DNA of 32,000 bases from Ruminococcus albus 7 = DSM 20455 (GCF_000179635.2 NC_014833.1:1590001-1622000), one strand, 5' to 3'. Numbered from the stretch's first letter, positions 7,350 to 26,635 are shown. Numbers and translations: made by a program. The notes: a model not told the origin generated them from the letters alone.

Positions 7350-7633
7350 ATAAGATCATTACAGGAACAGTAATATCAGTAAATGGAAAGTTTTCTTTTT
7401 CGGGACTTTATGATGCACAGGGCACTCCTGTCTGCATCAGCCTTGAAAAGAATGATGACGATATAATACTTGCAGTCGTAAAAGAGCCGGAAGAACATAA
7501 GAAAGACAGAACTGCCGACTGCGGGATATCCGAAGAAGAGATAGACAGGACTTGTCAGGCACAGGATAACTGCGATGATTGCCCGCTGTTTGACTATTGC
7601 ATGGAGGTTTATGCAGATGAATACGATAAATGA
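7346..7633 (+). CDS. Hypothetical protein (95 aa), Cys-rich acidic C-terminus
   Basis: ATGA overlap with the methyltransferase stop. The sequence contains CQAQDNCDDCPLFDYC. No family is recognised. Confidence 0.5.
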   Translation: MNKIITGTVISVNGKFSFSGLYDAQGTPVCISLEKNDDDIILAVVKEPEEHKKDRTADCGISEEEIDRTCQAQDNCDDCPLFDYCMEVYADEYDK

Positions 7634-8633
7634 AATGCTTGGTGAAAAGCACTGTGAACAGCATAGCGAACCACAGGACTATGAGGACAAGCTCCTTATT
7701 ATCAAGCCCGAAAAGCTAAAGGAGCAGTACCGTAACCCAGTAGTCCAGTATTTTTATGCCACAAGCGGATTTGGCTGTAATCCGATAAACGGAGAAAAGA
7801 AAGTGTTCGGACATTTCCTTGCCGACGGGATGAAAGAACAGCTTTACCGCAGTGATTTTGTAGGTGTTGCTGACAAAAATCAGCTTCCGTCATGGGCAAC
7901 CAGAAGGCTTGAGATACTTGAAAAGCCAAAGATGAAGATCCGTGTTTTTCAGCTGAAAAACGGCAGTGACAACCTTTTTATGAACCATGATCATACTATG
8001 TCACATGGAGATATACAGGCAGAGAAATATATGCAGGTCTATGGCGGTGAAGTACTTGCAGACAGTCTGGAAGAAGTGTTCACAATCGGCAATACAGATC
8101 AGCCGCCCGGATATTTTGGACGTTCTCTTTCGGTCAGTGACGTTATCCAGGTATGCGAGGGTAAGGAAAAGGGGTTCTATTTTGTTGACAGCTTCGGATT
8201 CAAAAAGACAGAGGATTTCGATATCGAAAAGACAGACCACAAAAAAATGATGAAGATACTTGTGCTCGAAAATGACAGACAGCCCTATACAGCCGAGATC
8301 AGACGAGAGATCCATGCAATGCAGAGTGTGGTAGGAGGCTGTATAGAGCCTGTGTATTTTGAACCGAAGGGTGATGCACTCTGCTGGTGCAATGATGAGT
8401 TCCTGCTGAACGGATCCGCCCCAAATCGTAAGATAGGGGAAGTACTTGTTCACGGTACATGTTATATTTCGGGTGACAGTGTGAACGAGTATGGTGAGTA
8501 TGACTCCTGTTCACTAACAGACGAGCAGATCGAAAGGTATAAAGAGATGTTCCCGCAGTCTGTCATATGTCTGGTCAAAGCAGAAGATATGGCAGAAAAT
8601 GAATCGGAGTGCTTAACGCAGAATATGGATTGA
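7617..8633 (+). CDS. YodL-like + DUF3846 domain protein (ICE polyvalent-protein module)
   Basis: GGAGG lies 9 nt before ATG 7617 (MNTINEML). The YodL-type segment is IRVFQLK...YMQVYGGEV...LEEVFTIGN...PPGYFGRSLSVSDVIQV...FYFVDSFGF. The DUF3846-type segment is MKILVLENDRQPYTAEIRREIHAMQSVVGGCIEPVY...CNDEFLLNGSAPNR. Confidence 0.75.
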   Translation: MNTINEMLGEKHCEQHSEPQDYEDKLLIIKPEKLKEQYRNPVVQYFYATSGFGCNPINGEKKVFGHFLADGMKEQLYRSDFVGVADKNQLPSWATRRLEILEKPKMKIRVFQLKNGSDNLFMNHDHTMSHGDIQAEKYMQVYGGEVLADSLEEVFTIGNTDQPPGYFGRSLSVSDVIQVCEGKEKGFYFVDSFGFKKTEDFDIEKTDHKKMMKILVLENDRQPYTAEIRREIHAMQSVVGGCIEPVYFEPKGDALCWCNDEFLLNGSAPNRKIGEVLVHGTCYISGDSVNEYGEYDSCSLTDEQIERYKEMFPQSVICLVKAEDMAENESECLTQNMD

Positions 8634-8646
8634 AAGGAATGATAAT

Positions 8647-9012
8647 ATGAAGATAAATGCCAATATAAACAGGATCATAGACAAGCCGGATTCGAGCATC
8701 AAAGCCTTTGCATCAGCAAGTTTTGACGGTTATTTCGCGGTTCACGGCATAAAGGTATGCGAGGGTGAAAAGGGATTGTTCATATCAATGCCCTCGACCT
8801 CCTATTCCAATCAGAATGGAGAAAAGAAGTATCCGGACATATTTCACCCTATAACAAAAGGAGCAAGAGAAGCGCTGAATACAGCTGTAATTAGAGCGTA
8901 TAACTCTGCACTTGCACAGTCTCAGGAATCAGACATAGAAGTGCAGGATACTCCTGATGAAGAAACAGCAGAACAAAGCATTTATGATCACGATCCGAAG
9001 ATGCCTTTGTAA
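8647..9012 (+). CDS. SpoVG-family protein (mobile-element paralog)
   Basis: IKAFASASFDGYFAVHGIKVCEGEKGLFISMPS...YPDIFHPITKGAREALNTAV parallels the B. subtilis SpoVG pattern (AIASITLD..FVVHDIRVI.G..GLFVAMPS...DIAHPI). Confidence 0.85.
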   Translation: MKINANINRIIDKPDSSIKAFASASFDGYFAVHGIKVCEGEKGLFISMPSTSYSNQNGEKKYPDIFHPITKGAREALNTAVIRAYNSALAQSQESDIEVQDTPDEETAEQSIYDHDPKMPL

Positions 9013-9061
9013 AAAACAAGCTGGGAAATCAGTCGAAAAGGTAGAACTTTACAAAAAAGCC

Positions 9062-9090
9062 TTGACAAAAGGAAGCGTATGTAGTATCGT
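9062..9090 (+). promoter_or_regulatory. Possible sigma-A promoter for the surface-protein operon
   Basis: TTGACA (9062-9067), a 17-nt spacer, then TATCGT (9085-9090). The -10 element is weak. Confidence 0.3.
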
Positions 9091-9116
9091 AGTGCTAGAA
9101 GAGAGGAGCTGATAGC

Positions 9117-10025
9117 ATGAAAAAAGCAATGCTCATAACTATATTCGCTGTCCTGCTGACAGGGTGCGGCAGCACAGGAACGGAAAATGCTGATGCAGAA
9201 ACCAAGGCGGTAAGCCAAGTGACAATGACTTCACACGTTACAACATCTTCCGATTCTGAAATAGAAACTGTTCCTGCTGAAACTACCGATACGACTATAA
9301 AAGAAGTAAGCACAACAGTATCCGATATATTATCAGCAAAAAAGACTACTGCCAATAGTGCAAAGAGTAACAGCACTTCAAATAAGCAGACCGATAAAAC
9401 AGTAAAAACTCAGTCTCAGACTTCAAGACAGATCTCATCGCAGAATCAAACTCAGAACGAAACAGGATCAAAGGACACGGAGAACAGATCCTCAGCTACT
9501 ACAACTGTTCAAACCACTCCTGCGCTTAAAACTACAACTACCACCACATTAACAACAACCACAGTAACGAAAACTGTCACCGAGCAGATCACCGAAGCTA
9601 TCCCCGAAGAACCTGTTATAGATGAACGTTCCGCAATCGAAAGATGGCTGCATAACTTCGGAGATGCCAATGATAAAAGCTATTATGTAAGTATAGGTCA
9701 GGGTCTCCCTAACGATGGCTCCGACTACAGCAAAGCACAGGCTGTATATGATCATATGCAGAACAGTTTTTACGGTGAAAGAAACTGTGTATATATGTCC
9801 AGTGTAACCTATGCACTTTGTCAGGGCATAGGACTGGAATGCGGATACGCACTGATCAGTGACTGGTACAATCACTGTGCAAATACAGTAAATATAGACG
9901 GTACATGGTATGTGCTGGATACTCAGGCTTCGGGATTCTTATGCGGCGACCTCGGATACACAAGTATTCTGGATGAATATGAAGAATCGCTTGGGATAAC
10001 ACTAAGCGAAGACGATCACGATTAG
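9117..10025 (+). CDS. Lipoprotein with Thr/Ser-rich linker and C-terminal transglutaminase-like cysteine-peptidase domain
   Basis: Signal peptide plus lipobox (FAVLLTGCGS). The linker is low-complexity (TTTTTLTTTTVTKT). The C-terminus NCVYMSS...GIGLECGY...NHCANTVNIDGTWYVLDT fits the Cys...His...Asp transglutaminase-core pattern. Confidence 0.75.
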   Translation: MKKAMLITIFAVLLTGCGSTGTENADAETKAVSQVTMTSHVTTSSDSEIETVPAETTDTTIKEVSTTVSDILSAKKTTANSAKSNSTSNKQTDKTVKTQSQTSRQISSQNQTQNETGSKDTENRSSATTTVQTTPALKTTTTTTLTTTTVTKTVTEQITEAIPEEPVIDERSAIERWLHNFGDANDKSYYVSIGQGLPNDGSDYSKAQAVYDHMQNSFYGERNCVYMSSVTYALCQGIGLECGYALISDWYNHCANTVNIDGTWYVLDTQASGFLCGDLGYTSILDEYEESLGITLSEDDHD

Positions 10026-10037
10026 AAAGGAAAAACT

Positions 10038-13000
10038 ATGATCAAAAATAAAATATTAAAGCGTATCGGCGCAGGGTTCTTGTCAGGACTCTGCGCTTTT
10101 TCTATGCTCGGGAGTTCGTTCTCTGATTCTTTCACAGCGAAAGCTGAAAGCATAAAAGAACCTTCTTTCCCGTCAGTTGACACGGTGGTTGCTCAGGCGG
10201 CTACTCTTCTTGGAACACGCTATGGCTACGGATTTAAAGGCTATTCGGGTGTATATTATAAAGGATCTTATTCACCTCTTTCAGAAGAGTGGATAAGAGA
10301 ACAGGGTATAGACTGCTCAGGTCTTATCTATTATACACTCACACATTTAGGCTATTCCACTTCCGGATTTTCATGGAACAATCCTGTTCCTGTAGATACT
10401 ATGCACTGGCTCACGCTTAACGATAACTGTACAGTCACATACGGCGGGGTGACATCAAAGATAGATGTCGAAAAGGAAAACATCGCTACAAGTAAGCGTC
10501 CTTATTGGGAATGTGCAGACGGTTCAACGATAACTCCGGGTTCTGTGGTCATCGCAAAAAATAATTATGGAGAAGATCATTCATGGATATATATGGGTGA
10601 GTTTGACAACAGAAATGAAGTCGTAAATTATCTTAAGAACATCGGTGTAAGGGAGTCTCTCATAAACAAAAATACTGTTGGTGACGGAAAAGGCGATGGC
10701 GGCAGACACTGGAGGATCGAGGCAAGCGGCAGTGAAGGTGTTGTTATAAACAACAAGACCGACGGTAAATCTACTTCCGCACTGAATATGTTCGGTTTCA
10801 GAATAACTTCACGTGATGTCAGCTTTGAAATAGACAAGTATGCAACAGACGGCACTCTTGTAGGCAGATCATCGGTAGACGGAAGTTCTGCAGTTTACGG
10901 AATCTATTCGGATAAGACCTGTAAGAATAAAGTGGCAGAGCTGACGATCGGTGCAAAGGGAAACGGTGCCGTAAAACTTCCTAACGGAACATACTATGCC
11001 AAGGAATTAAAAGCCCCTGCCGGCTATGCACTGGATAATACCGTATATACAATTAAACCCGGTAAAAATGTAGTTACCGAGGATTTCAAATACGGCAAGA
11101 TCATTATAAACAAGACAGCTGAGGATGGCATCATCGGCGGTCGTGAATTCAAGGTAACATGGAGCGAAAACGGCAAAACCAAGAGTAAAACTGCTAGGAC
11201 AGATGACAGCGGTGTCGCCAAGTTTGCTAATCTCAAGATCTATGATCTGGCTAACGGCAAGCCCATATCGTATAATGTTTCCGAGATAAACGTTGAAACA
11301 AGATATGAGACACCGAAAGCCCAGAACGTTACACTTACAGACGGCGATGCAGATTTTACAGTAGTAACTAAATTCAAAAATGAAACAAAGAAAGGCAGTA
11401 TACGCATAAACAAGCAGTCAGAGGATAACCAGAACGGTGACAGAACATTCGTTATAACAGGCAATGGTCAGACCTATACCATAAAGACCGCTTCAAACGG
11501 TATTGCCGAACTGACAGATATCCCTGTGTATGATAAGAACAACAATAAGATCACCTATACAATAAGTGAGAAAGATGTACCTGTCAGATATGTTACTCCT
11601 GCGAACCAGACTGCTACACTCACTGCCGATAAGACAACGACCAAAGTGTTTGAGAACAAGCTGAAAAAGTTTACGGCAGAGGTGACCAAGGTTGACAGAG
11701 AGACCGAACATCCTCAGGGAGATGCAACGCTTCAGGGTGCTGTTTACGGAATCTATAAGAACGGCGAGCTGGTAGATCAGTATACTACCGATAAAAACGG
11801 TCACTTTAAAACAAAGGAGTACCCATGCGGCAATTATACGATCAAGGAGATCAAGCCCTCAATGGGATATACTCTTGATACGACCGAGTACAATGTCGGT
11901 GCAGAGGAAAAGAACTACACTTCAGAGCATAATACAGTCGAAATGAAAGTATTCGAATCCCCCATCAAAGGTGACTTTTCACTTCTCAAGCACAGCGACA
12001 AGGACGATAATGGAATAGAGAACCTTGAAGCAGGCGCTGAATTCGATGTTTACCTCAAGAGCGCAGGCAGTTATGATAATGCCAGCGATACCGAGCGTGA
12101 CCATCTTGTTACAGACTTAAGCGGTCAGGCTAAGAGCAAAAAACTGCCCTACGGCGTGTATATCCTTCGTCAGACAAAAACTGTCAACGATGCGGAGATG
12201 ACTGCTGACATTGAGATAAATATAAGCAAGAATGATCAGTCCTATGAATACACTCTAAATAACAAGCCCTTTGAAAGCTATGTAAAGATCGTAAAGCGTG
12301 ATGCTGAATCAGGCAATAATATCGCTCTTGCAGGGGCAGGATTCGAGATATACAACAGTGCAGATGAGAAGATAGTGCTTGGAAGTACTTCCGTATATTA
12401 CACCAATGATGAAGGCTATCTTATCACTCCCGAAATGCTTGGATACGGCAGCTATAAGCTTGTTGAGGTGAAGGCTCCCGAGGGTTATGTTCTTGACAGC
12501 ACTCCTGTTGAATTCAGTGTAAACAGAGCAAACAGTTCCAAGGAAAATGCAGTCACTGTTGTTATAGTAGATAAATCCGATGCACCCCAGAAAGGCAGGA
12601 TAAGCGTACACAAGCAGGGCGATATATTCAGCGGAGTGACTTCTCTAGGCACTGTACTGTCGCAAGATGAGGACGGTGCTGTATACGAGGAAGGATATAC
12701 TACCTATACTCCTTGCTTCGATACAGGTTACCTTGAGGGTGCTGAGTTTGAGATAACTGCTGCTGAAGATATAATAACACCTGACGGCACAGTCCACGCA
12801 AAGGCGGGTGATCTTGTGGGTAAGATGACCACCGATGAGAACGGTTTTGCTCAGTCCAATCTGCTATATCTCGGAAAATACAATATAACTGAGACAAAGG
12901 CTCCTTACGGATATGTAAAGAACAATGAGACCAAGACAGCAGAGCTGACCTATGCGGGTCAGTATGTAGATGTATGCAGCACTGCCGACACATCCTTTAT

Positions 13001-14639
13001 AAATGGTTATCAGGGGGTAAATATCCATCTTACAAAATTCATGGAACATGACAGCATATATAATGTTGGCGGTAACGAAGATGCTTCAAGAGTTGAGTTC
13101 GGTCTGTTTGCAGACGAAGAGATAGTATCAAGAAGCGGTGCGGCTATTCCCAAGGACGGTCTCATATCAGTTGTTTCTGTAGGTGAGGATATGACAGCCC
13201 GATTTGATGTTAAACTCCCCTTTGGCAGATACTATGTTCAGGAGATATCAACTGATGAAAAGTATATTATCAGCGGTGAAAAGCATATCGTGACCTTTGA
13301 ATACGCAGGTCAGGACAACTATACAGTAGATATAGATGCAGGTGAATTTGTAAATGACCTTAAGAGAGGTTCTGTACAAGGCATAAAGGTCAATGAGCTT
13401 GACGAGCCTCTTGCAGATGCTCTGTTTGGTCTTTTCAGCGCAGACTGTGAGTTCTTTGACAGAGATAACGCAATAGAAACAGCACGTTCAGATGAAAACG
13501 GACATTTCAGCATCACAGGGATCCCATACGGATCATATATCCTTGCGGAAATCGCATCTCCCGACGGATATGTTTTGAGCAATGAAAGACACGGTGTTCT
13601 CATTGACGAAGATGGCGATGAGGTATTCATCACTGCTGTAAACAAGGAAACAGAGCTTCATGTTTCCAAGAAGGATATTTACGGAAACGAACTCTCGGGT
13701 GCTGCAATGCAGATCCTTGACAGCGAAGGAATAGTTTTCGATGAATGGATATCCGACGGCACCGAGCATATCGTCAGCGGCATTCCTGCTGGCAGCTACG
13801 TTCTTCATGAAACAGCAGCTCCTGTCGGCTTTGTTATAGCCGCGGATATAGCCTTCACCATAGACGAATATAACAAGGTCACTGTTGAGGATATATCTGC
13901 TTTAGCGAGTGATGAAAACGGTATCCCTGCCATTATCATGACAGATAACTCAACAAAGGTTGAGTTCACAAAGACAGATATCACAGGTGAAAGAGAACTC
14001 GAAGGAGCTAAACTTCAGGTCATTGACAAGGACGGGAACATCATTGATGAATGGATATCTTCAAATATATCTCATGTCATTGAGGGCATGCTGATCGCAG
14101 GAGAAGAGTATATCCTTCATGAAGAAATAAGTCCAGACGGTTACGTGACCGCTGAAGACATTACTTTCACAGTATCTGATGATGGAAAGATGGATAAGGT
14201 CACAATGAAAGATGATACCACAAAGGTACGCATCTCAAAGCGTGACATAACAACCAATGAAGAACTGCCCGGTGCGACACTTATTATAATGGATGAGAAT
14301 GGAAACACTGTCGAGGAATGGGTATCCACAAATGAAGGACATTTTATAGAGGGAAAACTTGTCGCAGGCAAGATCTACACTCTTCGTGAGATAACTGCAC
14401 CTGATGGCTATGAAGTGGCTAATGATGTTCAGTTTACCGTTAACGAGGATGGTTCTGTGACGGAAGTAGTCATGTATGATAAAAAGAAGTCAAGTCCAAA
14501 GATCCCGTCAAGCCATAATCCTCATACGGGAAGTATATATGGAAATTCTCTGATCAACAAGTCGCTTGCTGCAATGGCTGTATGTGTTCTTATCATGGTG
14601 ATCACAAAGAAAAAGAATAAGAAGGAGGACGATGAATGA
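10038..14639 (+). CDS. Giant cell-wall-anchored surface protein: signal peptide, NlpC/P60 hydrolase domain, many Cna-B/SpaA-type repeats, NPHTG sorting-like signal
   Basis: NlpC/P60 motifs are GIDCSGLIYYTL (Cys) and DHSWIYMG (His). There are more than 10 repeats with the Y.L.E..AP.GY.L signature. The C-terminus is NPHTG, then a hydrophobic stretch (SLAAMAVCVLIMVIT), then KKKNKKEDDE. Confidence 0.9.
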   Translation: MIKNKILKRIGAGFLSGLCAFSMLGSSFSDSFTAKAESIKEPSFPSVDTVVAQAATLLGTRYGYGFKGYSGVYYKGSYSPLSEEWIREQGIDCSGLIYYTLTHLGYSTSGFSWNNPVPVDTMHWLTLNDNCTVTYGGVTSKIDVEKENIATSKRPYWECADGSTITPGSVVIAKNNYGEDHSWIYMGEFDNRNEVVNYLKNIGVRESLINKNTVGDGKGDGGRHWRIEASGSEGVVINNKTDGKSTSALNMFGFRITSRDVSFEIDKYATDGTLVGRSSVDGSSAVYGIYSDKTCKNKVAELTIGAKGNGAVKLPNGTYYAKELKAPAGYALDNTVYTIKPGKNVVTEDFKYGKIIINKTAEDGIIGGREFKVTWSENGKTKSKTARTDDSGVAKFANLKIYDLANGKPISYNVSEINVETRYETPKAQNVTLTDGDADFTVVTKFKNETKKGSIRINKQSEDNQNGDRTFVITGNGQTYTIKTASNGIAELTDIPVYDKNNNKITYTISEKDVPVRYVTPANQTATLTADKTTTKVFENKLKKFTAEVTKVDRETEHPQGDATLQGAVYGIYKNGELVDQYTTDKNGHFKTKEYPCGNYTIKEIKPSMGYTLDTTEYNVGAEEKNYTSEHNTVEMKVFESPIKGDFSLLKHSDKDDNGIENLEAGAEFDVYLKSAGSYDNASDTERDHLVTDLSGQAKSKKLPYGVYILRQTKTVNDAEMTADIEINISKNDQSYEYTLNNKPFESYVKIVKRDAESGNNIALAGAGFEIYNSADEKIVLGSTSVYYTNDEGYLITPEMLGYGSYKLVEVKAPEGYVLDSTPVEFSVNRANSSKENAVTVVIVDKSDAPQKGRISVHKQGDIFSGVTSLGTVLSQDEDGAVYEEGYTTYTPCFDTGYLEGAEFEITAAEDIITPDGTVHAKAGDLVGKMTTDENGFAQSNLLYLGKYNITETKAPYGYVKNNETKTAELTYAGQYVDVCSTADTSFINGYQGVNIHLTKFMEHDSIYNVGGNEDASRVEFGLFADEEIVSRSGAAIPKDGLISVVSVGEDMTARFDVKLPFGRYYVQEISTDEKYIISGEKHIVTFEYAGQDNYTVDIDAGEFVNDLKRGSVQGIKVNELDEPLADALFGLFSADCEFFDRDNAIETARSDENGHFSITGIPYGSYILAEIASPDGYVLSNERHGVLIDEDGDEVFITAVNKETELHVSKKDIYGNELSGAAMQILDSEGIVFDEWISDGTEHIVSGIPAGSYVLHETAAPVGFVIAADIAFTIDEYNKVTVEDISALASDENGIPAIIMTDNSTKVEFTKTDITGERELEGAKLQVIDKDGNIIDEWISSNISHVIEGMLIAGEEYILHEEISPDGYVTAEDITFTVSDDGKMDKVTMKDDTTKVRISKRDITTNEELPGATLIIMDENGNTVEEWVSTNEGHFIEGKLVAGKIYTLREITAPDGYEVANDVQFTVNEDGSVTEVVMYDKKKSSPKIPSSHNPHTGSIYGNSLINKSLAAMAVCVLIMVITKKKNKKEDDE
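13650..14480 (+). repeat. Three tandem ~88-100-aa domain repeats inside the surface-protein gene
   Basis: The units share K.DI.G.EL.GA.L.I.D..G....EW.S....H.I.G....G.Y.L.E...P.GY......I.FT. They start at about 13650, 13950 and 14215 and have diverged at DNA level. Confidence 0.7.
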
Positions 14640-14758
14640 AAAAGGTGATTATAGTCTTAGCGGTCGTAATAGCGGTCGCTTTTATTATGGGCGGAACATG
14701 GTGGCTCATAAGTTCGGGTGCATACAGGAATATTGACTGGAGCGCGTTAGTGGTCTGA
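14636..14758 (+). CDS. Small membrane protein (40 aa), not on ORF track
   Basis: ATGA overlap with the surface-protein stop. Translation is MKKVIIVLAVVIAVAFIMGGTWWLISSGAYRNIDWSALVV, a single TM helix. Confidence 0.4.
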   Translation: MKKVIIVLAVVIAVAFIMGGTWWLISSGAYRNIDWSALVV

Positions 14759-14773
14759 TGAAAGGATGATCAA

Positions 14774-15094
14774 ATGAAAAGAAGAAAGATACTCGCATTT
14801 ATTTGTACAGCGCTGACAGCAGCGTATTTGTTTGCAGTACCCGCAAGCGCAAGTGTATCCGATGCAGTAACATCGACATGGACAACAGCAAAAATACAGA
14901 TACAGGCGGTGGTAGATAATGTTGTTTTTCCTGCTATCGACGTCATACTGGCAGTTTTGCTGTTTGTTAAGATCGGTGCAGCATATCTGGATTACCGCAA
15001 GCATGGACAGCTTGAATGGACTCCTATAGCAATAATCTTCGGAGGACTTCTGTTCTCATTGACTGCTCCGCTGTATATCTGGACAATAATATAA
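14774..15094 (+). CDS. T4SS pilin-like small membrane protein (VirB2/TrbC-type topology; possibly Maff2-like)
   Basis: Signal peptide (AVPASASV) followed by two hydrophobic helices separated by YLDYRKHGQLE. Position is upstream of the coupling-protein block. The family name is uncertain. Confidence 0.5.
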   Translation: MKRRKILAFICTALTAAYLFAVPASASVSDAVTSTWTTAKIQIQAVVDNVVFPAIDVILAVLLFVKIGAAYLDYRKHGQLEWTPIAIIFGGLLFSLTAPLYIWTII

Positions 15095-15118
15095 CAGCAT
15101 AACATCGAATCATATTTT

Positions 15119-15152
15119 GGAGCATCGAAAATCGGTGCTCCTTTATTATTTT
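15119..15152 (+). terminator. Rho-independent terminator
   Basis: ggagcatcg-aaaat-cggtgctcc forms a 9-bp stem (one G:U) followed by tttattatttt. Confidence 0.6.
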
Positions 15153-15169
15153 CAAAGGAGGAAATAAAA

Positions 15170-15901
15170 GTGAAGAAACATTTTTCAGTAGTCATAGCCG
15201 CTGTTTTGGTATTGTCTCTGTCTGCCTGCGGAACGCTGGCACCGCCGCAGAGAGCGGAAATGACTTCAACAGCTACAACGACAGCAGAAGCCACGACTGC
15301 ACCGATAGATATCAGTGAACCTGCAGTTACGACAAAACCGGAAATATCCGAAAAAGAAAAGAAAGAACTTGAAAACAACGTATTCATGACAGAGTTTTTC
15401 AATTCATCTATCACTTTTATCGACAGATCGGATATAGCTAAGGAGACCCTGAAAGCATTCAGTTTTGAGCATAACGAACTGACCAACAATGGATCGGAAA
15501 GAATTTCTCTGAGCAGTGAAAGCGGCAGCGGTATCATAGATATGACTTGCATAGATATAACTTCAAGTGATCTTGACTGTGATCTCGGATATATGATGGA
15601 TTCGGTCGGTGATTATTACTACAGCCTGACAAAGAGCTCTATGCGGGGAGTCACAGATGATGACTTCAATACCAATTACCGAATGATAAACACTGTAGTA
15701 TCTAAAGCAAAATACCAACAGTACGGCTCAATGCAGAGATCTGACGGAATGACAATGCAGTTCGGATATGCCGAAACTTGTGCAGCACTTGTGGATAACA
15801 AGCTGATGGTAGTATCAGGTCAGTTTGTGTCAACGGATATGATGGACAGACAGGCTTTTTCGAGACTTATGACATCATTCAGAGAGAAAATTTCATTCTA
15901 G
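15170..15901 (+). CDS. Lipoprotein, function unknown (ICE conserved-position gene)
   Basis: GTG start lies 8 nt after AAGGAGG. Lipobox is LSLSACGT. A Thr/Ala-rich linker follows. Confidence 0.7.
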   Translation: MKKHFSVVIAAVLVLSLSACGTLAPPQRAEMTSTATTTAEATTAPIDISEPAVTTKPEISEKEKKELENNVFMTEFFNSSITFIDRSDIAKETLKAFSFEHNELTNNGSERISLSSESGSGIIDMTCIDITSSDLDCDLGYMMDSVGDYYYSLTKSSMRGVTDDDFNTNYRMINTVVSKAKYQQYGSMQRSDGMTMQFGYAETCAALVDNKLMVVSGQFVSTDMMDRQAFSRLMTSFREKISF

Positions 15902-15909
15902 GAGGACGT

Positions 15910-16194
15910 ATGAAAGTAAAAGTTATAGGGATACCTCTGTCTGAAGAAGAAATAGAGGAATACAAGAAATATGTGCGTAACAAACACCCCGAAGACAAAA
16001 TCGAAGAACTTGTAATCGAATCGGATGGTGAATATGTGGACCTGACCTGCTATACACGTGCTCTTCCGTTTGAACGAATCCGCAGGATAACAGGATATCT
16101 TGTGGGTTCTCTTGACCGATTCAATGATGCAAAAAGAGCCGAAGTTGCGGACAGGCTGTCACACGATACAGAGCCGTTTGTTCAGGAAATGTGA
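15910..16194 (+). CDS. Small protein (94 aa) whose C-terminal half resembles the glycyl-radical tail of anaerobic ribonucleotide reductase NrdD
   Basis: AGGAGG RBS. ERIRRITGYLVGSLDRFNDAKRAEVADRLSH compares with the NrdD C-terminal pattern RR.CGYLG.....FN.GK..E...R.KH, which I recall from memory. Confidence 0.6.
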   Translation: MKVKVIGIPLSEEEIEEYKKYVRNKHPEDKIEELVIESDGEYVDLTCYTRALPFERIRRITGYLVGSLDRFNDAKRAEVADRLSHDTEPFVQEM

Positions 16195-16203
16195 GGTGAT
16201 GCT

Positions 16204-17604
16204 ATGCCATATATCCCATTTACAGACGAGCAGAAAGTGCTTGCCAACACAGTAGATCTTGAAAGATTTCTTGCTATGAGAGGTGAACATCTTGAACGTG
16301 CAGGCAGGTCTTCAAAGCTTATATATACAGACGGTTCTGGTAAACATGACAGCATCATGATAAACGGTTCAAAGTGGTATGATCATAAGCGGCAGATCGG
16401 AGGCGGTGCAATAAAGTTCATGCAGGAGTTCTACGGCATGGATTTTGTACAGGCTGTTCAGGAATTGATCGGTGTGACTGTATCGCCCATAGTACACAAC
16501 AAAAATGAATACGTTCCGAAGAAAGAAAAGAAAGCATTTATTCTGCCGTCGAAGAACAACACTATGCACCGAGTTTACGCCTATCTTATAAAACAGAGGT
16601 TTATAAGAGCCGATGTTATCACTCACTTTGCAAAAGCAGGAACTATCTATGAAGATGATAAACATCACAATGCAGTGTTCGTAGGGATCGATGAAGCCGG
16701 TGTTCCAAAACAAGCTTCAAAACGAGGAACTTCCACTTACGGTGATCCGTTCAAGATGACCGTAGAGGGATCTGACACAAAATACAGCTTTGCTCACTAT
16801 GGTACATCAGGCAGACTATACGTTTTTGAAGCCCCGATAGATATGCTGTCATATATCACGCTTCACCCGGAAGACTGGCAGAAACACAGCTATATCGCTA
16901 TGAATGGTGTGTATGAGAGCGCTGTGCTTCATGCTCTGGGATCGCACGAAAACATTGAGCATATCGTACTGTGTACCGATAATGATGAGGGCGGCATTGA
17001 TGGTGCAGAGCGTATTCGGGATATTCTGAATGAAAGCGGCTTTTTGAATATTACAAGGCTATTTCCTGACTATAAAGACTGGAATGAAGACCTGAAAGCC
17101 AAAAATGGACAGCAAGCCCTTCCTGGTGAAAATCATAGACGTAAAGCTTTATACTATGGATATGTCGAACAGTTGAAATACCTACGCTGTCGTCCGGATA
17201 AGCTGTCCGAACAGCTGAAGATCTCGTTTAGGAACGGTCAAACCAAATACCTTGCCGAGTATGCGCTTGCAGGCTCGGCTTTTTTTATGCGTGTCAAAGA
17301 TGAACCACAGGGATTTCAGAATTTGCAGAAAAGACTGATAAAATCATATCGGGCTTACAAAGATAAAGGCAAGTATGTTTCAAAAAAGCGGGATATGACA
17401 AGCAAATACAATGAAGTCATGCGTGATCTGCGTAAAACTGCAAGGACAGAAGAACAGTCCATAGCTACGGCAAAAATGCTTTATGAGCTTGCTGACTTTG
17501 CAGTGCGTACTGCAGTTGAAGAAGCCTGCGATAAACCTGTAAAGGAGCAGACTAAATGTGAGGATGAGGATATAGAATTATCACCGCAGGCAGGATTTGG
17601 ATGA
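16204..17604 (+). CDS. DUF3991 + Toprim domain protein (ICE primase/topoisomerase-like)
   Basis: Toprim acidic motifs are LYVFEAPIDMLSY and IVLCTDNDEGGIDGAERI. The N-terminal region is of the type seen with DUF3991 in Firmicutes ICEs. Confidence 0.8.
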   Translation: MPYIPFTDEQKVLANTVDLERFLAMRGEHLERAGRSSKLIYTDGSGKHDSIMINGSKWYDHKRQIGGGAIKFMQEFYGMDFVQAVQELIGVTVSPIVHNKNEYVPKKEKKAFILPSKNNTMHRVYAYLIKQRFIRADVITHFAKAGTIYEDDKHHNAVFVGIDEAGVPKQASKRGTSTYGDPFKMTVEGSDTKYSFAHYGTSGRLYVFEAPIDMLSYITLHPEDWQKHSYIAMNGVYESAVLHALGSHENIEHIVLCTDNDEGGIDGAERIRDILNESGFLNITRLFPDYKDWNEDLKAKNGQQALPGENHRRKALYYGYVEQLKYLRCRPDKLSEQLKISFRNGQTKYLAEYALAGSAFFMRVKDEPQGFQNLQKRLIKSYRAYKDKGKYVSKKRDMTSKYNEVMRDLRKTARTEEQSIATAKMLYELADFAVRTAVEEACDKPVKEQTKCEDEDIELSPQAGFG

Positions 17605-17700
17605 TGCGTCATATGTCCTGCGTCATCATTTCATAAGAAGAAGTTATAAATATAATTATTTATATTATAGCGAAAAGAAGAATGATATGGGAGTGATAGA

Positions 17701-19482
17701 TTGAATGAACATCAGATGATAACGATAGGGCTGATGGCGGCTGCATTTATCATATTTTATGTTGTAATTAATGTTCTGGATAACAAGAACATCAACAGGA
17801 TAAAAAGCAAAACAGTAGGTGACGGACAGCATGGAACAGCCAGATGGGCGACCAAGCCTGAGATCAGACGAACTTTTTCTTCTTCGCCATTTGCTCCCGA
17901 AGACTGGAGACAAGGCAAAAACTTGCCGTCTGTTCAGGGAACAGTCGTCGCCTGCAGGGGTGGAAAGCATACGACTGCACTTGTAGATACAGGAGATGTA
18001 CACACCCTGATGATAGGCGCGGCAGGTGTAGGTAAAACCGCGTATTTTCTGTATCCGAATATTGAGTTTGCCTGCGCCTCAGGTATGAGTTTTTTATCGA
18101 CCGATACAAAAGGCGATGTTGCCCGAAACTACGGCAGGATAGCACGTGACTGCTATGGCTACAATGTGTCTGTAATCGACCTGAGAAATCCGACCAGAAG
18201 TGATGAAAACAATATCCTGCACCTTGTAAACAAATATATGGACATCTATCTGAACGACCGCACCAACTTGTCAGCAAAGGCGAAAGCAGAAAAATACGCT
18301 AAGATAACAGCCAAGACTATAATCAATATCGGCGGCGGTGACAGTGCAAACTACGGACAGAATGCTTTCTTCTACGATGCCGCCGAAGGACTGCTGGGTT
18401 CGGTAATACTTCTGCTTGCTGAATTCGGAGAAAAGAATGAACGGCATATAGTATCCGTGTTCAAGCTTATACAGGATCTTATCTCCAAACCGCCTGCCAA
18501 AACAGCCAAGTACAAGCCTAAGATGTATTTTACAACACTTATGGAAAAACTTCCCTCTGAACACAAAGCCAAGTGGCTTGCGGGAGCAGCGCTGAACAGT
18601 GCAGATCAGTCTATGATGTCTGTTATGAGTACGGCTTTATCAAGGCTCAACAGCTTTCTCGACTCTGAGATGGAGCAGATACTCTGTTTTGGAACAGCTA
18701 TAGATGCAGAGGTCTTCTGCCGTGAAAAATCGGCAATATTCATCATACTTCCGGAGGAAGATCAAAGCAAGTATTTCATGGTGTCATTGCTTATACAGCA
18801 GCTTTATCGTGAGATACTCACCATAGCCGATGAGAACGGCGGTACGCTTACGGACCGAGTCATGTTTTACTGTGATGAATTTGGAACATTTCCGAAAATA
18901 GAGGGCGCAGAAGCAATGTTCTCTGCAGGACGATCAAGAAAGATCTCTATCGTAGCGATCATACAGTCATTTGCACAGCTTGAACAGAAATATGGAAAAG
19001 AGGGTATGGAGATCATAACCGACAACACTCAGCTGACAGTGTTCGGCGGATTTGCACCAAACTCTCAGTCTGCGGAAGTGCTGTCCAAGGCTCTTGGTGA
19101 GCAGACTGTTCAAAGCGGATCAGTATCGCTGGGCAAAGAGCGATCGCAGTCAATACAAATGATGGGCAGACCGCTTATGACGGTCGATGAGCTGAAAAGT
19201 ATGCCCAAGGGACAGTTCATCGTAATGAAAACGGGTACACACCCGATGAAAAGCAAACTTAAACTATATTTCAAGTGGGGCATCAGGTTTGGCGAGCCGT
19301 TCCTGCTTGAGGACAGAGGTGCCAGACGTGTGGACTATGCCGAAAGAGACAGACTTATATCTGCAGTTGAGCAAAAATATCCGCAGAAAACACCGATGCG
19401 GTCAGAACCTGCAGATAATGGATTTATACCAATGGATACAGATTTCGCATCAAAGACTAAAGCAAATGTAAGGACTGAATAA
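17701..19482 (+). CDS. Type IV coupling protein (VirD4/TraG family)
   Basis: TTG start lies 7 nt after GGGAG. There is an N-terminal TM helix. GTARWAT is present; Walker A is MIGAAGVGKT; the Walker B-like segment is VMFYCDEFGT. At 593 aa it is typical of Gram-positive T4CPs. Confidence 0.9.
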   Translation: MNEHQMITIGLMAAAFIIFYVVINVLDNKNINRIKSKTVGDGQHGTARWATKPEIRRTFSSSPFAPEDWRQGKNLPSVQGTVVACRGGKHTTALVDTGDVHTLMIGAAGVGKTAYFLYPNIEFACASGMSFLSTDTKGDVARNYGRIARDCYGYNVSVIDLRNPTRSDENNILHLVNKYMDIYLNDRTNLSAKAKAEKYAKITAKTIINIGGGDSANYGQNAFFYDAAEGLLGSVILLLAEFGEKNERHIVSVFKLIQDLISKPPAKTAKYKPKMYFTTLMEKLPSEHKAKWLAGAALNSADQSMMSVMSTALSRLNSFLDSEMEQILCFGTAIDAEVFCREKSAIFIILPEEDQSKYFMVSLLIQQLYREILTIADENGGTLTDRVMFYCDEFGTFPKIEGAEAMFSAGRSRKISIVAIIQSFAQLEQKYGKEGMEIITDNTQLTVFGGFAPNSQSAEVLSKALGEQTVQSGSVSLGKERSQSIQMMGRPLMTVDELKSMPKGQFIVMKTGTHPMKSKLKLYFKWGIRFGEPFLLEDRGARRVDYAERDRLISAVEQKYPQKTPMRSEPADNGFIPMDTDFASKTKANVRTE

Positions 19483-19497
19483 GGGGGGATCCATAAT

Positions 19498-19767
19498 TTG
19501 ATAGTAGCAAGAAGGATTTATGATACAGACCTTCCTCATCGTGCGATAACTGTTTTTTGTTATCTTTGTGACAGGTCAAATAAAAAAGGCGAATGTTTCC
19601 CGTCATCACGAACCATAGCCAAAGATCTGAATATTAGCCGAAGGACTGTGTTTCGAGCTCTTAATGACCTTGAAAAAGAAGGATTTATAAAGAGAAAAGG
19701 CAGGCACAGGACAAGCGGCGGCAGATCTTCAAATCTGTATGTGCTGGAGGTGAAGCCCGATGTTTGA
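19498..19767 (+). CDS. Winged helix-turn-helix protein (replication-initiator/DnaD-like HTH common in ICEs)
   Basis: TTG start lies 9 nt after AAGGGGGG. The sequence contains FPSSRTIAKDLNISRRTVFRALNDLEKEGFIKR. Confidence 0.65.
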   Translation: MIVARRIYDTDLPHRAITVFCYLCDRSNKKGECFPSSRTIAKDLNISRRTVFRALNDLEKEGFIKRKGRHRTSGGRSSNLYVLEVKPDV

Positions 19768-20686
19768 ATGGATAGGTGATGTGATAGATTGGATCGGTGA
19801 AGGGATATCTTCACTTTGGGACAGCACGGTAGGAGCGGCAGCAGATGCTATAACGGTGACAGTCTGGGATATGATGTTCAAGTGGCTGTTTGAAACGATA
19901 TACGGAGCTATAGCCGGTCTTTTCAAATTTATAAACAGCACAACTAATGACATATTTACTCTTTCATGGGTAAAAACCTTTATTGCATTATTTAATGCGA
20001 TGGGCTGGATGCTGTTTATCTGTGGATTTATAGTAGCAGTATTTGATTGTGCTGTAGCCTACGAGAACGGTTCCGCCAACATCAAGAATACGGCTATAAA
20101 CATCTTTAAAGGCTTTATGGCAGCATCACTTGTCACAGTGGTACCGCCGAAACTGTATGCTACCTGCACAAGCTTGCAAGGTTCTTTCGCCCTGGACCTT
20201 ATGGGCAATTTTGTCAGTGACACCATCTCTACCATTAGTGATACGGCACAAGCAGTAGTAATAGAAATAGCTATGGAAGTATCTCTTCTGAATCTGCTGT
20301 TCATAATACTGTTTGGCTACTGCACGGTCAAGGTAGTTTTGGCAAACATCAAGCGCGGCGGTATACTGCTTTGTCAAATCGCAGTCGGAAGTCTGTATAT
20401 GTTCGGAGTGCCCAGAGGGTATACCGATGGTTTCTACAACTGGTGCAGGCAGGTCATTGCTACCTGTCTTACTGCATTTTTACAGACCACGATCTTATAT
20501 ATTGGTCTGCTTACCTATACAGAACACGCTCTTATTGCAGTAGGTCTGTGTTTATCAGCGAATGAAGTTCCGAGGGTAGCTCAGATGTACGGACTTGATA
20601 CTAGCGTTAAAGTCAATGTTACAAACGTAAGTCAGAGCGTCAATATGGGCGGTAAAGTCATGGGACTTATGAGAGGTACAAGATAA
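19760..20686 (+). CDS. Polytopic membrane protein, VirB6/TrbL-like T4SS channel component
   Basis: The start overlaps the upstream gene by 8 nt. There are at least 6 hydrophobic helices. It sits between the coupling protein and the PrgI/VirB4 genes, as in Clostridial ICEs. Confidence 0.7.
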   Translation: MFEWIGDVIDWIGEGISSLWDSTVGAAADAITVTVWDMMFKWLFETIYGAIAGLFKFINSTTNDIFTLSWVKTFIALFNAMGWMLFICGFIVAVFDCAVAYENGSANIKNTAINIFKGFMAASLVTVVPPKLYATCTSLQGSFALDLMGNFVSDTISTISDTAQAVVIEIAMEVSLLNLLFIILFGYCTVKVVLANIKRGGILLCQIAVGSLYMFGVPRGYTDGFYNWCRQVIATCLTAFLQTTILYIGLLTYTEHALIAVGLCLSANEVPRVAQMYGLDTSVKVNVTNVSQSVNMGGKVMGLMRGTR

Positions 20687-20710
20687 TATATTTCGGTAAG
20701 GAGTGGTAGT

Positions 20711-20986
20711 ATAAAAACGTATATCTATCCCGAAAACCTCAGAGCCAACGTAAAGCTATGGTTCTGGAATGTTCGGGATTTTATCATCATAAGCGGCGGA
20801 GTAATAGTATCGGTCATGGTATTTGCAAACTTCTGGAATATCCTGCCTGCAGCCGCAACTCTGTGCTATGCTTTTCTAAGCCTTCGGGCTGACGAAACAT
20901 CGGTCATGGATTATATCTTAAATGCCTTTCGGTTTTTCTGTGTTTCACAGCAGGAGTTCCGCTGGCAGAAAAGGAGTGAGAACTGA
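20711..20986 (+). CDS. PrgI-like small T4SS membrane protein, no canonical start codon
   Basis: The frame is open from 20687 to TGA 20984-86. It encodes IKTYIYPENLRANVKLWFWNVRDFIIISGGVIVSVMVF...FRWQKRSEN (two TM helices). AAGGAG (20698-20703) lies 7 nt upstream of ATA 20711. The first in-frame ATG is deep inside TM1. Confidence 0.5.
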   Translation: MKTYIYPENLRANVKLWFWNVRDFIIISGGVIVSVMVFANFWNILPAAATLCYAFLSLRADETSVMDYILNAFRFFCVSQQEFRWQKRSEN

Positions 20987-21220
20987 TTGTCAAAAAAGAG
21001 AAAAAACGGCGTTCAGGCACTTATCGGCCTTGAACGCTTTACTCGATACGGAGTAAAAACTGATAAAGCTGAGATCGTTATGTTTGCAGTCGAACCGACT
21101 AATATCTCCGTGCTTTCTGCGTCAAATATAGATACAAAGATCCACAGCCTGATGCTTGTTCTGTCGGTCATACCTGACCTTGAACTTATCGCTTCAGACA
21201 GTGCCGAACGTTTTGACGAT
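20987..21220 (+). pseudogene. VirB4-like T4SS ATPase, N-terminal ~78 codons only
   Basis: TTG start follows directly after the PrgI-like stop. GVQALIGLERFTRYGVKTDKAEIVMFAVEPTNISVLSASNIDTKIHSLMLVLSVIPDLELIASDSAERFDD matches the conserved N-terminus of Firmicutes VirB4/CD1110-type ATPases. The frame then runs into unrelated sequence and stops at 21268. No Walker motifs follow. Confidence 0.75.
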
Positions 21221-21221
21221 A

Positions 21222-22277
21222 GGTTACACTCCTTTAGAGGATCTGAAACTAAACAACAAATCAGATAAAGATACAGACGGCGACGGTATCCCCGATTATC
21301 TTGAATTATCTGAATATGATCTTGGCACATTTGACAATACTACCGGAGACTATAAACCGGCTAATTACGGTCATTATTTTAATTTGGCTTCAAATATTGG
21401 CATTCTTGTAAGCGGTTCAGTCGGCGATAAAATAATGAATACCTATACCTCGTCATTCCGTTCACATCCATTTAATAGGAATAGCGATGATGATGACTAT
21501 ACAGATGATGAGGATGGTACACCTGAAGAAGAGAATGAAGATCTGATTGAAATATTATCATTGGTTGATAATACGTGCATGTGGGAGTCAGGCTGGTTTA
21601 AGGAATACTATGAATCAAAAGGTAAAAAATGCAGAATTCGCTATTTTAATGGATATGATACATTTATTCTACAGTGGAATCGTATAGGTGGCAGCGATGA
21701 TGGTTCCTACGACTATTACTACAATGTAACTGATGTTATTTTAATATCACATGGAAACCCTGGTTATTTTCTTCTTGGTAACAATGTGGCTCTTACTTCT
21801 AAAAACACCAGAGACGGTGTAAATTTTCATCGAATCGAAGACATCGATGACTGTAGACAATTCGATAATTTAGAAATGATGATATGCTCTAGCGATTGTG
21901 TTCCTGATGAAGATGGTTATACTAAAAGCACCGCAGAAGCGTTCTTTGACCATTTTCGCAGCATAAACAGAGTATTCGCATTTGATTGCACTAGTTGCCT
22001 TGTAAGTGGTTATGACTATCCGGTTTGGGCAGGAGCTGTCATGTATTTTCCAGTCATACCTTATGTCCCACCTCTTGAACCAAGTTTAAATGATCCACAA
22101 ATGCTAATTTGTTTGAGCACTTCGAGCTGTAAAGGTCAGGTTTTATATGAACGAGGTAAGGATAAAAATAGTGACTTGTACGATGGGTTAGATGATGTTC
22201 AAATAGAAGTCTATTATACGAAAATGTATACAACCGGTTATGGTGCAGAATTAGGAGAAATTCATATGGATCCAGCT
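21222..22277 (+). pseudogene. 3' portion of a secreted/polymorphic protein gene (no start, fused out of frame to the virB4 stub), part 1
   Basis: The frame begins mid-protein (GYTPLEDLKLNNKSDKDTDGDGIPDYLE, a thrombospondin-type-3-like Ca-binding repeat). The ATG at 21156 lies inside the virB4 remnant and has no RBS. The frame is interrupted at 22277 by the IS-like element. Confidence 0.65.
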
Positions 22278-22646
22278 TGTGTATGCCGTTTCGTCAGAGC
22301 CATCTGCACGGACTTTGAGAGCCACTTTCACGGAGTAAAGAGCCACTTGTGATAAACGCCATTCTCGAACTAGGTTCGTTCGCATTTATTCCACAGTCCA
22401 CTTGACAGCAAGCCTCTATGAGTGCGGTAGTCCGGCAGCACAGGCAGGCAGCCACGAGGGCTGCTGCCTGGCCACCAGCCTACCACACTCATACTCACTG
22501 TCAAGCGGCTTTTGCGGTGTATATACCGCTCCGACTACCACAGCTGCACGGACATTTTGCCCACGCTTGCCGCAGACTGCCCACGGGCACTGCACGGCAA
22601 AATATGATATACTTGATATGGCACGTCAATGACGTGACTACATATC
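22278..22646. repeat. Left inverted arm of the IS-like element (GC-rich, contains 3 AGAGCCA sub-repeats and an extra 105-nt hairpin)
   Basis: The reverse complement aligns by eye with 23741..24001. AGAGCCA copies start at 22296, 22317 and 22339, a period of about 21-22 bp. Confidence 0.8.
22401..22505. other. Long imperfect GC-rich hairpin present only in the left arm
   Basis: Paired blocks are cttgacag/ctgtcaag, tatgagtg/cactcata, ggtag/ctacc and ggcaggcagcc/ggctgctgcc around the loop acgag. Confidence 0.7.
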
Positions 22647-24545: not shown

Positions 24546-24606
24546 ATTAATATGAATAATTGTAATTTGTCACATTGCGAATTTTGATTATTTGTTTAGG
24601 GGTGAT

Positions 24607-26058: not shown

Positions 26059-26633
26059 TGACAGGCTATTGGATCAGGCACAGAGCCTTATTATCAATAA
26101 TCCTGAGTGCTGTCATTGCTGTAGTAGCCGGACTGTTGTTTGTGTTCCCGTTTATTTCTCAGATTGCGGATAACTATAATTCGCAGAGCGTTTATAAAAA
26201 CACAAATATTGACTTTATCGCTCCTGAGCCGTCTTTTGAGCAGATAAGCGAATTGCCTGGGAGCAATGGGATTGATAAGGTGTTCCCCTTCTTTCTGACT
26301 AAAACTGCTGTAAACGCAGGCGGTAATTCGAGGACAACAACAGTTCTGCTGAGTGACCGCTTTGAAAACGTCGATATTACGATAGCTTGTAATTTTCGCA
26401 GGCTTGTAATGCTCGGATTTGAGAAGAAAAAGCTGAATCAAGCGTATCATAGTTATATATGTAGGTCAGGAGTCATTACTATAATATTCGCTTTTGCCCT
26501 ATCAAGCATAGTATTCCTATTCGCTGATATTACAGCTATTAGAATAATACTTGTAATATGGATACCGTTGATCGAGCTGATAACACTATTTACAGCGGCT
26601 ACAATAATCAATAGACGGTTATGGAGGAAATAA
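26058..26633 (+). CDS. Shortened FtsX-like ABC permease (191 aa; apparent in-frame internal deletion)
   Basis: The TAATG overlaps the upstream stop. The order is TM1, the start of an extracytoplasmic domain, then directly an FtsX-type cytoplasmic loop (RRLVMLGFEKKKLNQAY) and two TM helices. Normal FtsX/MacB permeases are about 2-4 times longer. Confidence 0.55.
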   Translation: MTGYWIRHRALLSIILSAVIAVVAGLLFVFPFISQIADNYNSQSVYKNTNIDFIAPEPSFEQISELPGSNGIDKVFPFFLTKTAVNAGGNSRTTTVLLSDRFENVDITIACNFRRLVMLGFEKKKLNQAYHSYICRSGVITIIFAFALSSIVFLFADITAIRIILVIWIPLIELITLFTAATIINRRLWRK

Positions 26634-26635
26634 TC

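Follow-up and report, generated by a model that had tools for sequence, protein, structure and literature searches.

A stand-alone NrdD-type glycyl-radical-domain protein encoded in a conjugative element of Ruminococcus albus 7 and its relatives in chromosomal nrd operons

The 32,000-nucleotide stretch of Ruminococcus albus 7 (DSM 20455) DNA analyzed here (NC_014833.1:1590001-1622000, hereafter the window, meaning the whole stretch) carries a small gene for a protein of 94 amino acids within the transfer region of an integrative and conjugative element (ICE). Sequence comparison identifies this small protein as a true homologue of the glycyl-radical tail of NrdD, the class III (anaerobic) ribonucleotide reductase (RNR), with the functional residues kept. 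It is proposed, with a probability of about two in three, that the small protein is an autonomous NrdD-type glycyl-radical domain that would serve as a protein cofactor for the class III RNR of the host. The decisive evidence for a partnership with NrdD, as judged from gene order and sequence, comes from chromosomal relatives of the small gene. A broader reading, which is given somewhat better than even odds, is that many gut Clostridia possess a two-piece anaerobic RNR, in which the radical glycine resides on a separate, exchangeable protein of 50 to 100 amino acids acting as a spare or as the sole radical subunit, and that phages and ICEs carry copies of it to secure or control host deoxynucleoside triphosphate (dNTP) synthesis. 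This would be the first such system beyond pyruvate formate-lyase (PFL). The location inside an ICE transfer region, which the first-pass annotation of this DNA had assigned, is supported by the genes for a DUF3991-Toprim protein, a VirD4-type coupling protein, and TrbL that lie downstream.

Homology of the small protein to the NrdD radical tail

The Pfam profile NRDD (PF13597) matches the small protein with 27.9 bits, above the gathering score of 26.2 (E = 1.3e-6), which bears out the NrdD-type assignment made earlier. Residues 47 to 85 correspond to profile positions 527 to 562 of 562, and positions 1 to 526, comprising the catalytic core, a ten-stranded alpha/beta barrel with its finger-loop cysteine, have no match in the 94-residue protein. 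The NCBIfam equivalog models of NrdD (including TIGR02487 and NF005497) likewise cover the tail only (E = 8e-11 to 3e-7), with scores of 29 to 41 bits that are far under the whole-protein cutoffs of 326 to 764. The tail contains the stretch PFERIRRITGYLVGSLDRFNDAKRAEVADRLSH. This had been described as the C-terminal end of a 94-residue product, of which the length holds and the terminal position does not, since DTEPFVQEM comes after it.

The sole sequence match in the PDB is the NrdD of Prevotella copri (8p23), retrieved at an E value of 7e-5 with the single sequence and of 3.1e-10 with the family profile. Gly62, Tyr63, and Arg70 of the small protein align with the radical Gly711, Tyr712, and Arg719 of P. 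copri NrdD (residue 715 of the 8p23 chain, to which Gly62 aligns, corresponds to Gly711, as the chain has four extra N-terminal residues and counts 743 instead of 739). In the P. copri enzyme, Tyr712 and Arg719 connect the radical loop with the substrate and the flap (PMC11226230). The small protein thus shares with the C-terminal glycyl-radical domains (GRDs) of the NrdDs of P. copri, phage T4, and T. maritima both the loop and the helix that follows it (ITGYLVG..DR.N..K..E..DR..H), but, unlike these enzymes, it has no barrel, ATP-cone, or Zn site, and the module stands on a separate polypeptide. Profile-profile comparison with hhalign aligns only the 40-residue tail to NrdD C termini (probability 99.8%, E = 2.7e-29), and the tail consensus of the small-protein family is essentially that of NrdD. 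This indicates that the N-terminal domain is not a recognizable derivative of the Zn-ribbon. The single cysteine (C47) and the lack of any CxxC motif mean that the four-cysteine site of the Zn-ribbon is absent, in agreement with the first-pass annotation. The Pfam profile Gly_radical (PF01228) gives no match to the small protein even at E ≤ 10.

In the AlphaFold model, residues 1 to 50 form a domain with a predicted local distance difference test (pLDDT) score of about 80, consisting of strands at residues 2 to 7, 31 to 38, and 43 to 49 and a helix at residues 12 to 25. The radical region, modeled alone, scores low (44 to 56), as is expected for a loop that normally resides inside a barrel. 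A Foldseek comparison of the model with the PDB returned no structure at E ≤ 0.001, the best E value being 0.38.

A search of 5.8 billion proteins retrieved 5546 matches at E ≤ 0.001, of which the best 120 are all 73 to 119 residues long. A profile search of representatives at 50% identity yielded 2709 clusters at E ≤ 0.001, 1714 of them at E ≤ 1e-10, and nearly all of the best 150 of these clusters are 56 to 143 residues long. Across 35 diverse homologues the segment R56-I-R-R-I-T-G-Y-L-V-G66 is invariant, as are R70, N72, K75, E78, R82, and H85 in the tail and E14, Y18, and G40 in the N-terminal half. The glycine of the GYL motif, Gly62, is therefore conserved throughout, as the assignment of a radical site presumes. 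Stand-alone members span about 53 to 140 residues, and an open reading frame (ORF) of this kind was present at each of the 160 loci fetched for the neighborhood sample (80 genome loci and 80 viral contigs, with 1424 neighboring ORFs clustered). No curated model for the family was found in Pfam, NCBIfam, PHROGs, or PADLOC; PHROGs returned tail matches to NrdD families only, and PADLOC had no match for the small protein. Members are at present labeled as hypothetical proteins or misnamed as full anaerobic RNRs, and no different established function was found for the family.

Chromosomal relatives and glycine-less NrdDs

In contrast to the ICE copy, chromosomal relatives of the small gene adjoin nrdD and nrdG. 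At locus L015 the gene order is nrdD (779 residues), small gene (94 residues), nrdG, and nrdR. All six relatives of the L015 small protein that were looked up show the same nrdD-small gene-nrdG-nrdR order with differing flanking genes. Among these six is P0282, an 89-residue protein that accompanies the L170-type NrdD and for which the collection has 329 indexed blocks. The small gene lies directly 5' of nrdG in seven operon lineages and at locus L183, as does a 53-residue, GRD-only version at locus L003.

The adjoining NrdD is canonical in five of the seven operon lineages (L015, L175-177, L178, L179/180, and L181/182). In these lineages the small protein and its NrdD neighbor have tails that match exactly or almost exactly, and the paired tails covary from one lineage to another (GTVDRFNNGK, GTVDRFNDGK, and GTLDRFNDGK). 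In the L015 pair, 31 of the 32 tail positions compared are identical, although 12 of the 96 nucleotides differ. With such an NrdD the small protein duplicates a tail already present in cis, as would suit a spare or a booster for the oxygen-labile tail; from these sequences it would be a counterpart of the PFL spare part GrcA (YfiD).

The remaining two operon lineages, together with three further loci, have an adjoining NrdD without the radical glycine. At L170-172, which are three independent assemblies, the NrdD end contains ERLKRFVTHGE and reads CPHCGRKEHESDIKCSERLKRFVTHGECASLESF(E) up to the stop codon; at L173/174 it contains ERIKRIRNY and reads TERIKRIRNYTYKDEN near its end; and at L183 it terminates with SERILRIRR, the 90-residue small gene beginning 6 nucleotides downstream. 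In no reading frame do the NrdDs of L170-172, L173/174, or L183 contain the radical motif. Subdoligranulum variabile (L003) encodes an intact NrdD of 759 residues that ends in ELRKLYPGTFTYCGCE and is followed by a 53-residue radical-module ORF and then by nrdG. The complementarity can be read from the coverage of the Pfam NRDD profile: the NrdD of S. variabile covers positions 2 to 531 and the 53-residue ORF positions 533 to 562, the NrdD of L170 covers positions 1 to 538 and its small gene positions 533 to 562, and the canonical NrdD of L015 covers all of 1 to 562. The glycine-less NrdDs retain the Zn-ribbon in the large subunit, as seen in the alignment.

One glycine-less NrdD core is under strong purifying selection. 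L170 and L171 differ by 47 synonymous and 2 non-synonymous changes, the ratio of non-synonymous to synonymous rates (dN/dS) among the three glycine-less contigs L170-172 is 0.01 to 0.06, and that of the glycine-less L173 against the canonical L015 is 0.10; canonical pairs give 0.18 to 0.19. Beside a glycine-less NrdD the small protein would, on these alignments, be the sole radical subunit. A split of NrdD by a frameshift, an intron, or an intein was considered and rejected, as no frame holds the motif and the small genes have start codons of their own; the extra N-terminal domain of the small genes also opposes a split-gene reading.

Of the 120 database NrdD C termini nearest to that of L170, the canonical motif is present in 73 and missing from 47, and named members of the latter group come from Oscillospiraceae, Butyricicoccus, and Anaerovoracaceae. 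This share is indicative only, because most of the 120 sequences are partial and the two that were inspected (L184 and L185) have a fragmented nrdD. These two loci, long-read contigs in which nrdD is broken into several ORFs, were not counted as firm cases.

The glycine-less enzymes raise an alternative in which the small protein is an obligate subunit and not a spare. Under this reading the host NrdD would itself be glycine-less, and the copy on the ICE would be a supplementary or substitute allele that serves dosage, a match to a new host, or selfish retention and has no part in oxygen repair. The glycine-less NrdDs beside small genes in at least five lineages speak for it, as do the 47 noncanonical C termini, which include Oscillospiraceae and Butyricicoccus, and the genomes of the Ruminococcus flavefaciens group, in which a chromosomal copy lies away from nrdD. 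The five operon lineages that retain a canonical NrdD tail by the small gene argue against it, and as an account of the ICE copy it is considered unlikely, albeit the strongest of the alternatives. The earlier proposal of a GrcA-like spare part accordingly stands in modified form: the relatives between nrdD and nrdG and the existence of glycine-less partners support it, but in some genomes the small protein is apparently the only radical part and not a spare.

Several variants were encountered beside these cases. The ORFs of 53 to 54 residues at L003:7962-8123 (S. variabile) and L185:4846-5010 lack the N-terminal domain and amount to the bare radical module; each comes after a glycine-less NrdD, and together they represent a second, minimal stand-alone kind. 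In a group of NrdD C termini from Butyricicoccus and Oscillospiraceae (P0408, P0409, P0422, P0423, P0426, P0431, P0434, P0463, P0470, P0480, P0497, and P0503), the canonical tail is replaced by one that reads KL.KLG.YK..N..T[IL]GY[HT]G[DN]P.EE.DR.PN, and a close subgroup (P0398, P0415, and P0460) reads CGYCGD. Tails of the P0408 type keep GY and EE.DR and have lost RxRR and the usual spacing; they may be decayed relics or divergent functional radical loops. Another group of NrdDs (P0433, P0440, P0453, P0468, P0483, P0488, P0490, and P0499) has a CP.C[HR]R variant of the Zn-ribbon and stops at, or a few residues from, the position of the radical glycine, with endings such as GFERIRRIK and GFERIRRITFTAN. 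At L184, the only locus of this type that was read, no small gene adjoins, and the fragmented nrdD of this long-read contig may be an artifact.

Proposed mechanism and comparison with known systems

In the proposed mechanism, the host radical S-adenosylmethionine (SAM) activase NrdG would act on the free small protein and abstract a hydrogen from its Gly62. The RIRRITGYLVG loop would then enter the barrel of NrdD, replacing a cis tail that is missing, cleaved by oxygen, or displaced; Gly62 would come to lie beside the finger-loop cysteine, and Tyr63 and Arg70 would take over the contacts that Tyr712 and Arg719 have in P. copri NrdD. During nucleotide reduction the radical would move between Gly62 and the finger-loop cysteine, and the family-specific N-terminal domain would probably aid docking or activation. 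The GRD of P. copri NrdD is reportedly highly mobile and invisible in some states (PMC11226230), which makes an exchange of tails physically plausible. The ICE copy would be made along with the transfer proteins, as suggested by the gene string that it shares with the Toprim and coupling-protein genes, and it could add to the stock of the oxygen-labile radical part and so keep dNTP synthesis going in a strict anaerobe, to the advantage of either the host or the DNA synthesis of the element.

GrcA of Escherichia coli is likewise a small stand-alone protein composed of an N-terminal region and a C-terminal copy of the radical loop of its parent enzyme. It is activated by the activase of that enzyme and substitutes for an oxygen-cleaved tail in trans (PMC13450708, PMC8683613). 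The two proteins differ in origin, GrcA being derived from PFL and the small protein, which has no PF01228 match, from NrdD, and in their N-terminal parts, predicted to be folded in the small protein and disordered in YfiD (PMC13450708). They differ also in that some partners of the small-protein family have lost their own glycine; no equivalent among PFLs was met, although no literature search was aimed at this point. In 10 Ruminococcus-type loci, including those of R. flavefaciens ATCC 19208 and FD-1, a rubrerythrin gene lies 25 to 82 nucleotides downstream of the small gene on the same strand. A divergent gene for a Crp/Fnr-type regulator is found in 8 of these 10, and BacA is encoded past the regulator in most of them. 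The neighborhood of rubrerythrin and a Crp/Fnr regulator therefore points to a link with oxygen stress. Such regulators adjoin the small gene in 9 of the 80 genome loci overall, mostly of the Ruminococcus type, a likeness to grcA, which is regulated by FNR.

That phages and ICEs should carry a gene of this kind has a precedent in Y06I (vs.6) of phage T4, an autonomous glycyl-radical protein borne by a mobile element, which is described as able to rescue a host enzyme (PMC13450708, PMC8683613, PMC1524935). Y06I is of the PFL type and acts on PFL, whereas the family described here is of the NrdD type. A conceptual analogue is NrdB of class I RNR, where the radical used by the barrel is also located on a separate, exchangeable polypeptide. 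Its fold and chemistry are unrelated, a metallocofactor and tyrosyl radical taking the place of a glycyl radical installed by a radical-SAM enzyme.

Spare parts are known for formate lyases only, and for the other glycyl-radical enzymes (GREs) they are yet to be determined, according to a 2026 review (PMC13450708) and, in the same sense, a 2021 study of YfiD (PMC8683613). A search of the full-text literature, which does not cover all journals, found no paper on a spare part of the NrdD type or on a split NrdD, in line with the remark in the first-pass annotation that such a role was not known to have been described. The sequences suggest that the small protein probably acts in the manner of GrcA while being derived from NrdD and carrying a new N-terminal domain, an arrangement unreported for class III RNR. 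The family is a concrete spare-part candidate for this enzyme, and the glycine-less NrdDs represent a natural complementation experiment. If the proposal is true, class III RNR in some bacteria is a core with a detachable radical subunit and not a single chain plus an activase, which suggests how strict gut anaerobes may sustain dNTP production after brief exposure to oxygen.

Several observations weigh against the cofactor role or its connection with the ICE. Mutagenesis of T4 NrdD reportedly showed that the Zn-ribbon is required for the generation of the radical, and the small protein has none. Some of the glycine-less NrdD fragments in databases may be frameshift artifacts of long-read sequencing, as in L184 and L185. 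A role specific to ICEs is not supported by the survey: only 4 of the 80 genome loci (L010, L011, L016, and L081) have an ICE context like that of the window, most copies being chromosomal or located in prophages, and nothing ties the function to transfer itself, the one link to conjugation being the position in the operon. Moreover, the ICE is broken at position 21221 and is perhaps defective, which makes expression of the window copy uncertain.

Family distribution, remaining alternatives, and the conjugative element

Pattern scans of the GTDB representative genomes and of the IMG/VR viral contigs confirmed at least 597 and at least 570 loci, respectively, with Ruminococcus, Oscillospiraceae, and other Clostridia as the chief hosts. 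The family is thus not specific to ICEs, and in Ruminococcus and Oscillospiraceae it emerges as an accessory gene that is widespread among prophages and ICEs. Among the viral contigs, the small gene is near tail or lysis genes in 41 of 80, typically between the tail-fiber genes and an XhlA-holin-amidase cassette, a classic site for accessory genes. The clustered ORFs of the 160 loci include no universal neighbor, the largest cluster spanning 23 loci. A gene for SAM synthetase is directly downstream in 5 genome loci. Matches in PLSDB are full-length nrdD genes, many of them on chromosome-like records, with a Subdoligranulum record as the exception. In an annotated phage collection, two unannotated human-gut contigs match over the full length, and the full NrdDs of Clostridioides difficile phages are also retrieved.

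These accessory positions, in the transfer operon of an ICE and in the interval between phage tail-fiber and lysis genes, would also suit a decoy or inhibitor, in which the free tail titrates NrdG or blocks the NrdD barrel and so throttles dNTP synthesis or replication of the host during transfer or excludes rival phages. Rare fusions with weak matches to conflict-system domains (DUF3849 and AcrIC5-like, both under the gathering score) could be taken in the same sense. However, a positive role is implied by the presence of the family in core nrdD-nrdG-nrdR operons and by its pairing with glycine-less NrdDs that are under purifying selection, and the ICE copy retains every residue that is kept in canonical tails (among them Tyr63, Arg70, and the C-terminal DR..H); such residues would be superfluous in a decoy of the activase. 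This explanation is regarded as improbable. Still less credence is given to a different partner, either another GRE or a protein encoded by the ICE. The lack of recognizable relatives of the N-terminal domain and the great diversity of neighbors across loci would be compatible with it, but the tail is essentially the NrdD consensus and fails to match PF01228 even at the permissive threshold, the specific neighbors found to recur right beside the small gene at a constant position are nrdD and nrdG, in the operon lineages, and rubrerythrin, in the 10 Ruminococcus-type loci, and no nrdD, nrdG, other radical-SAM gene, or barrel-type GRE is present among the window ORFs scanned.

An inert remnant, that is, a 3' fragment of nrdD captured by the element, would explain why just the last 36 NRDD profile positions are present, but it is barely credible for a gene with its own start codon, a Shine-Dalgarno box, a distinct conserved N-terminal domain, thousands of similar-sized homologues (the 2709 clusters at 50% identity), and a ratio of non-synonymous to synonymous differences (pN/pS) of 0.10; the pseudogene reading was rejected because of this conservation and the separate N-terminal domain. 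The ratio comes from comparison with the ICE orthologue, to which the small gene shows 30.5 synonymous and 10.5 non-synonymous differences (16 and 2 in the radical module alone), and it indicates that the ICE copy is under purifying selection.

In a few proteins the whole small protein is fused to additional N-terminal regions (P0215, 535 residues; P0126, 236 residues; P0270, 254 residues; and P0182/P0229, about 205 residues), in which DUF3849 and an AcrIC5-like domain are hinted at below threshold. In one metagenome-assembled genome (L009:8853-10330), a member of 109 residues overlaps the 3' end of a reverse transcriptase (RVT_1) gene and precedes a DUF3850/ASCH gene amid small unknown ORFs, which is another mobile context.

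The features of the window that bear on the small gene are collected in Table 1.

Table 1. Positions of the small gene, its parts, and surrounding features, counted from the first nucleotide of the window
Feature	Position	Strand	Basis or remarks
Coding sequence of the stand-alone NrdD-type glycyl-radical-domain protein, 94 residues	15910..16194, including stop codon	+	ATG-initiated ORF; Pfam NRDD tail match; family alignment
AGGAGG, Shine-Dalgarno-like	15900..15905	+	4 nucleotides 5' of the small-gene ATG; overlaps the stop codon of the upstream gene; read from the sequence
N-terminal domain, residues 1-49	15910..16056	+	Predicted strand-helix-strand-strand; family-specific
Glycyl-radical module, residues 50-86 (ALPFERIRRITGYLVGSLDRFNDAKRAEVADRLSHD)	16057..16167	+	Homologous to the final ~36 NrdD residues
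GGA codon of Gly62, the predicted radical glycine	16093..16095	+	Alignment to 8p23; invariant in the family alignment
Terminator-like hairpin, probable start of the transcription unit	15119..15141	+	10-bp stem, 6 GC pairs, T-rich tail; pattern match only
Upstream gene, 243 residues, lipoprotein-like N terminus	15170..15901	+	Stop 8 nucleotides before the small-gene ATG
Downstream gene, 466 residues, DUF3991 and Toprim	16204..17604	+	DUF3991 1.7e-21, Toprim_2 8e-21; starts 9 nucleotides past the small-gene stop
VirD4/TraG-type type IV coupling protein, 593 residues	17701..19482	+	T4SS-DNA_transf 2.9e-46, TraG-D_C 1.8e-29
IS66 family element, complete-looking	29217-31536	-	520-residue DDE transposase, TnpB (IS66 Orf2), third small ORF

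After the hairpin, the putative transcription unit comprises the gene for the 243-residue protein, the small gene, the DUF3991-Toprim gene, and the coupling-protein gene; a helix-turn-helix gene and trbL come next. The 243-residue protein has no Pfam or PADLOC match, and its gene is kept at the same position in the related elements L004-L006, L010, L011, and L016. Upstream of the unit are genes for C5 and D12 methylases, a Bro/ANT protein, an LPD28 protein, YodL/DUF3846, SpoVG, a 1533-residue SpaA/Cna_B surface protein, and DUF3852.

Three related elements are 91 to 92% identical to the window from about position 5907 or 6646 to 21221 and have the small gene at the same place. The small gene itself is only ~85% identical in DNA to its counterpart at L005:10001-10285 (proportion of synonymous differences [pS] about 0.5), compared with 91 to 92% for the ICE backbone, and it may have a partly separate history, such as recombination with another copy. 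A RelB/ParE toxin-antitoxin pair lies between the DUF3852 gene and the gene for the 243-residue protein at L005:8573-9186 and L006:8573-9186 and is absent from L004 and from the window (15094-15118), which marks an insertion-deletion hotspot just upstream of the operon of the small gene.

Homology to the related ICEs ends at 21220/21221, inside a gene that encodes 193 residues in the relatives and of which residues 1 to 78 are left (window 20987-22352). The relatives continue with genes for a VirB4-like ATPase and HipA, which the window lacks. Past 21221, unrelated DNA extends to position 32000 and includes a 398-residue unknown ORF, a fragment of a type I S subunit, an ABC ATPase, an M15 peptidase, and the IS66 element. 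Truncation or recombination of the ICE, or a join made during assembly, could account for the break, and the IS66 element may be linked to it. Within this region, three codirectional genes at 24592-27400 encode proteins of 488, 191, and 259 residues. The first two have no matches, and the third is an ABC/AAA_21-type ATPase with PADLOC matches to mad3, AriA, and PtuA-like ATPases (best E = 3.4e-16); the trio may be a small defense or abortive-infection cassette.

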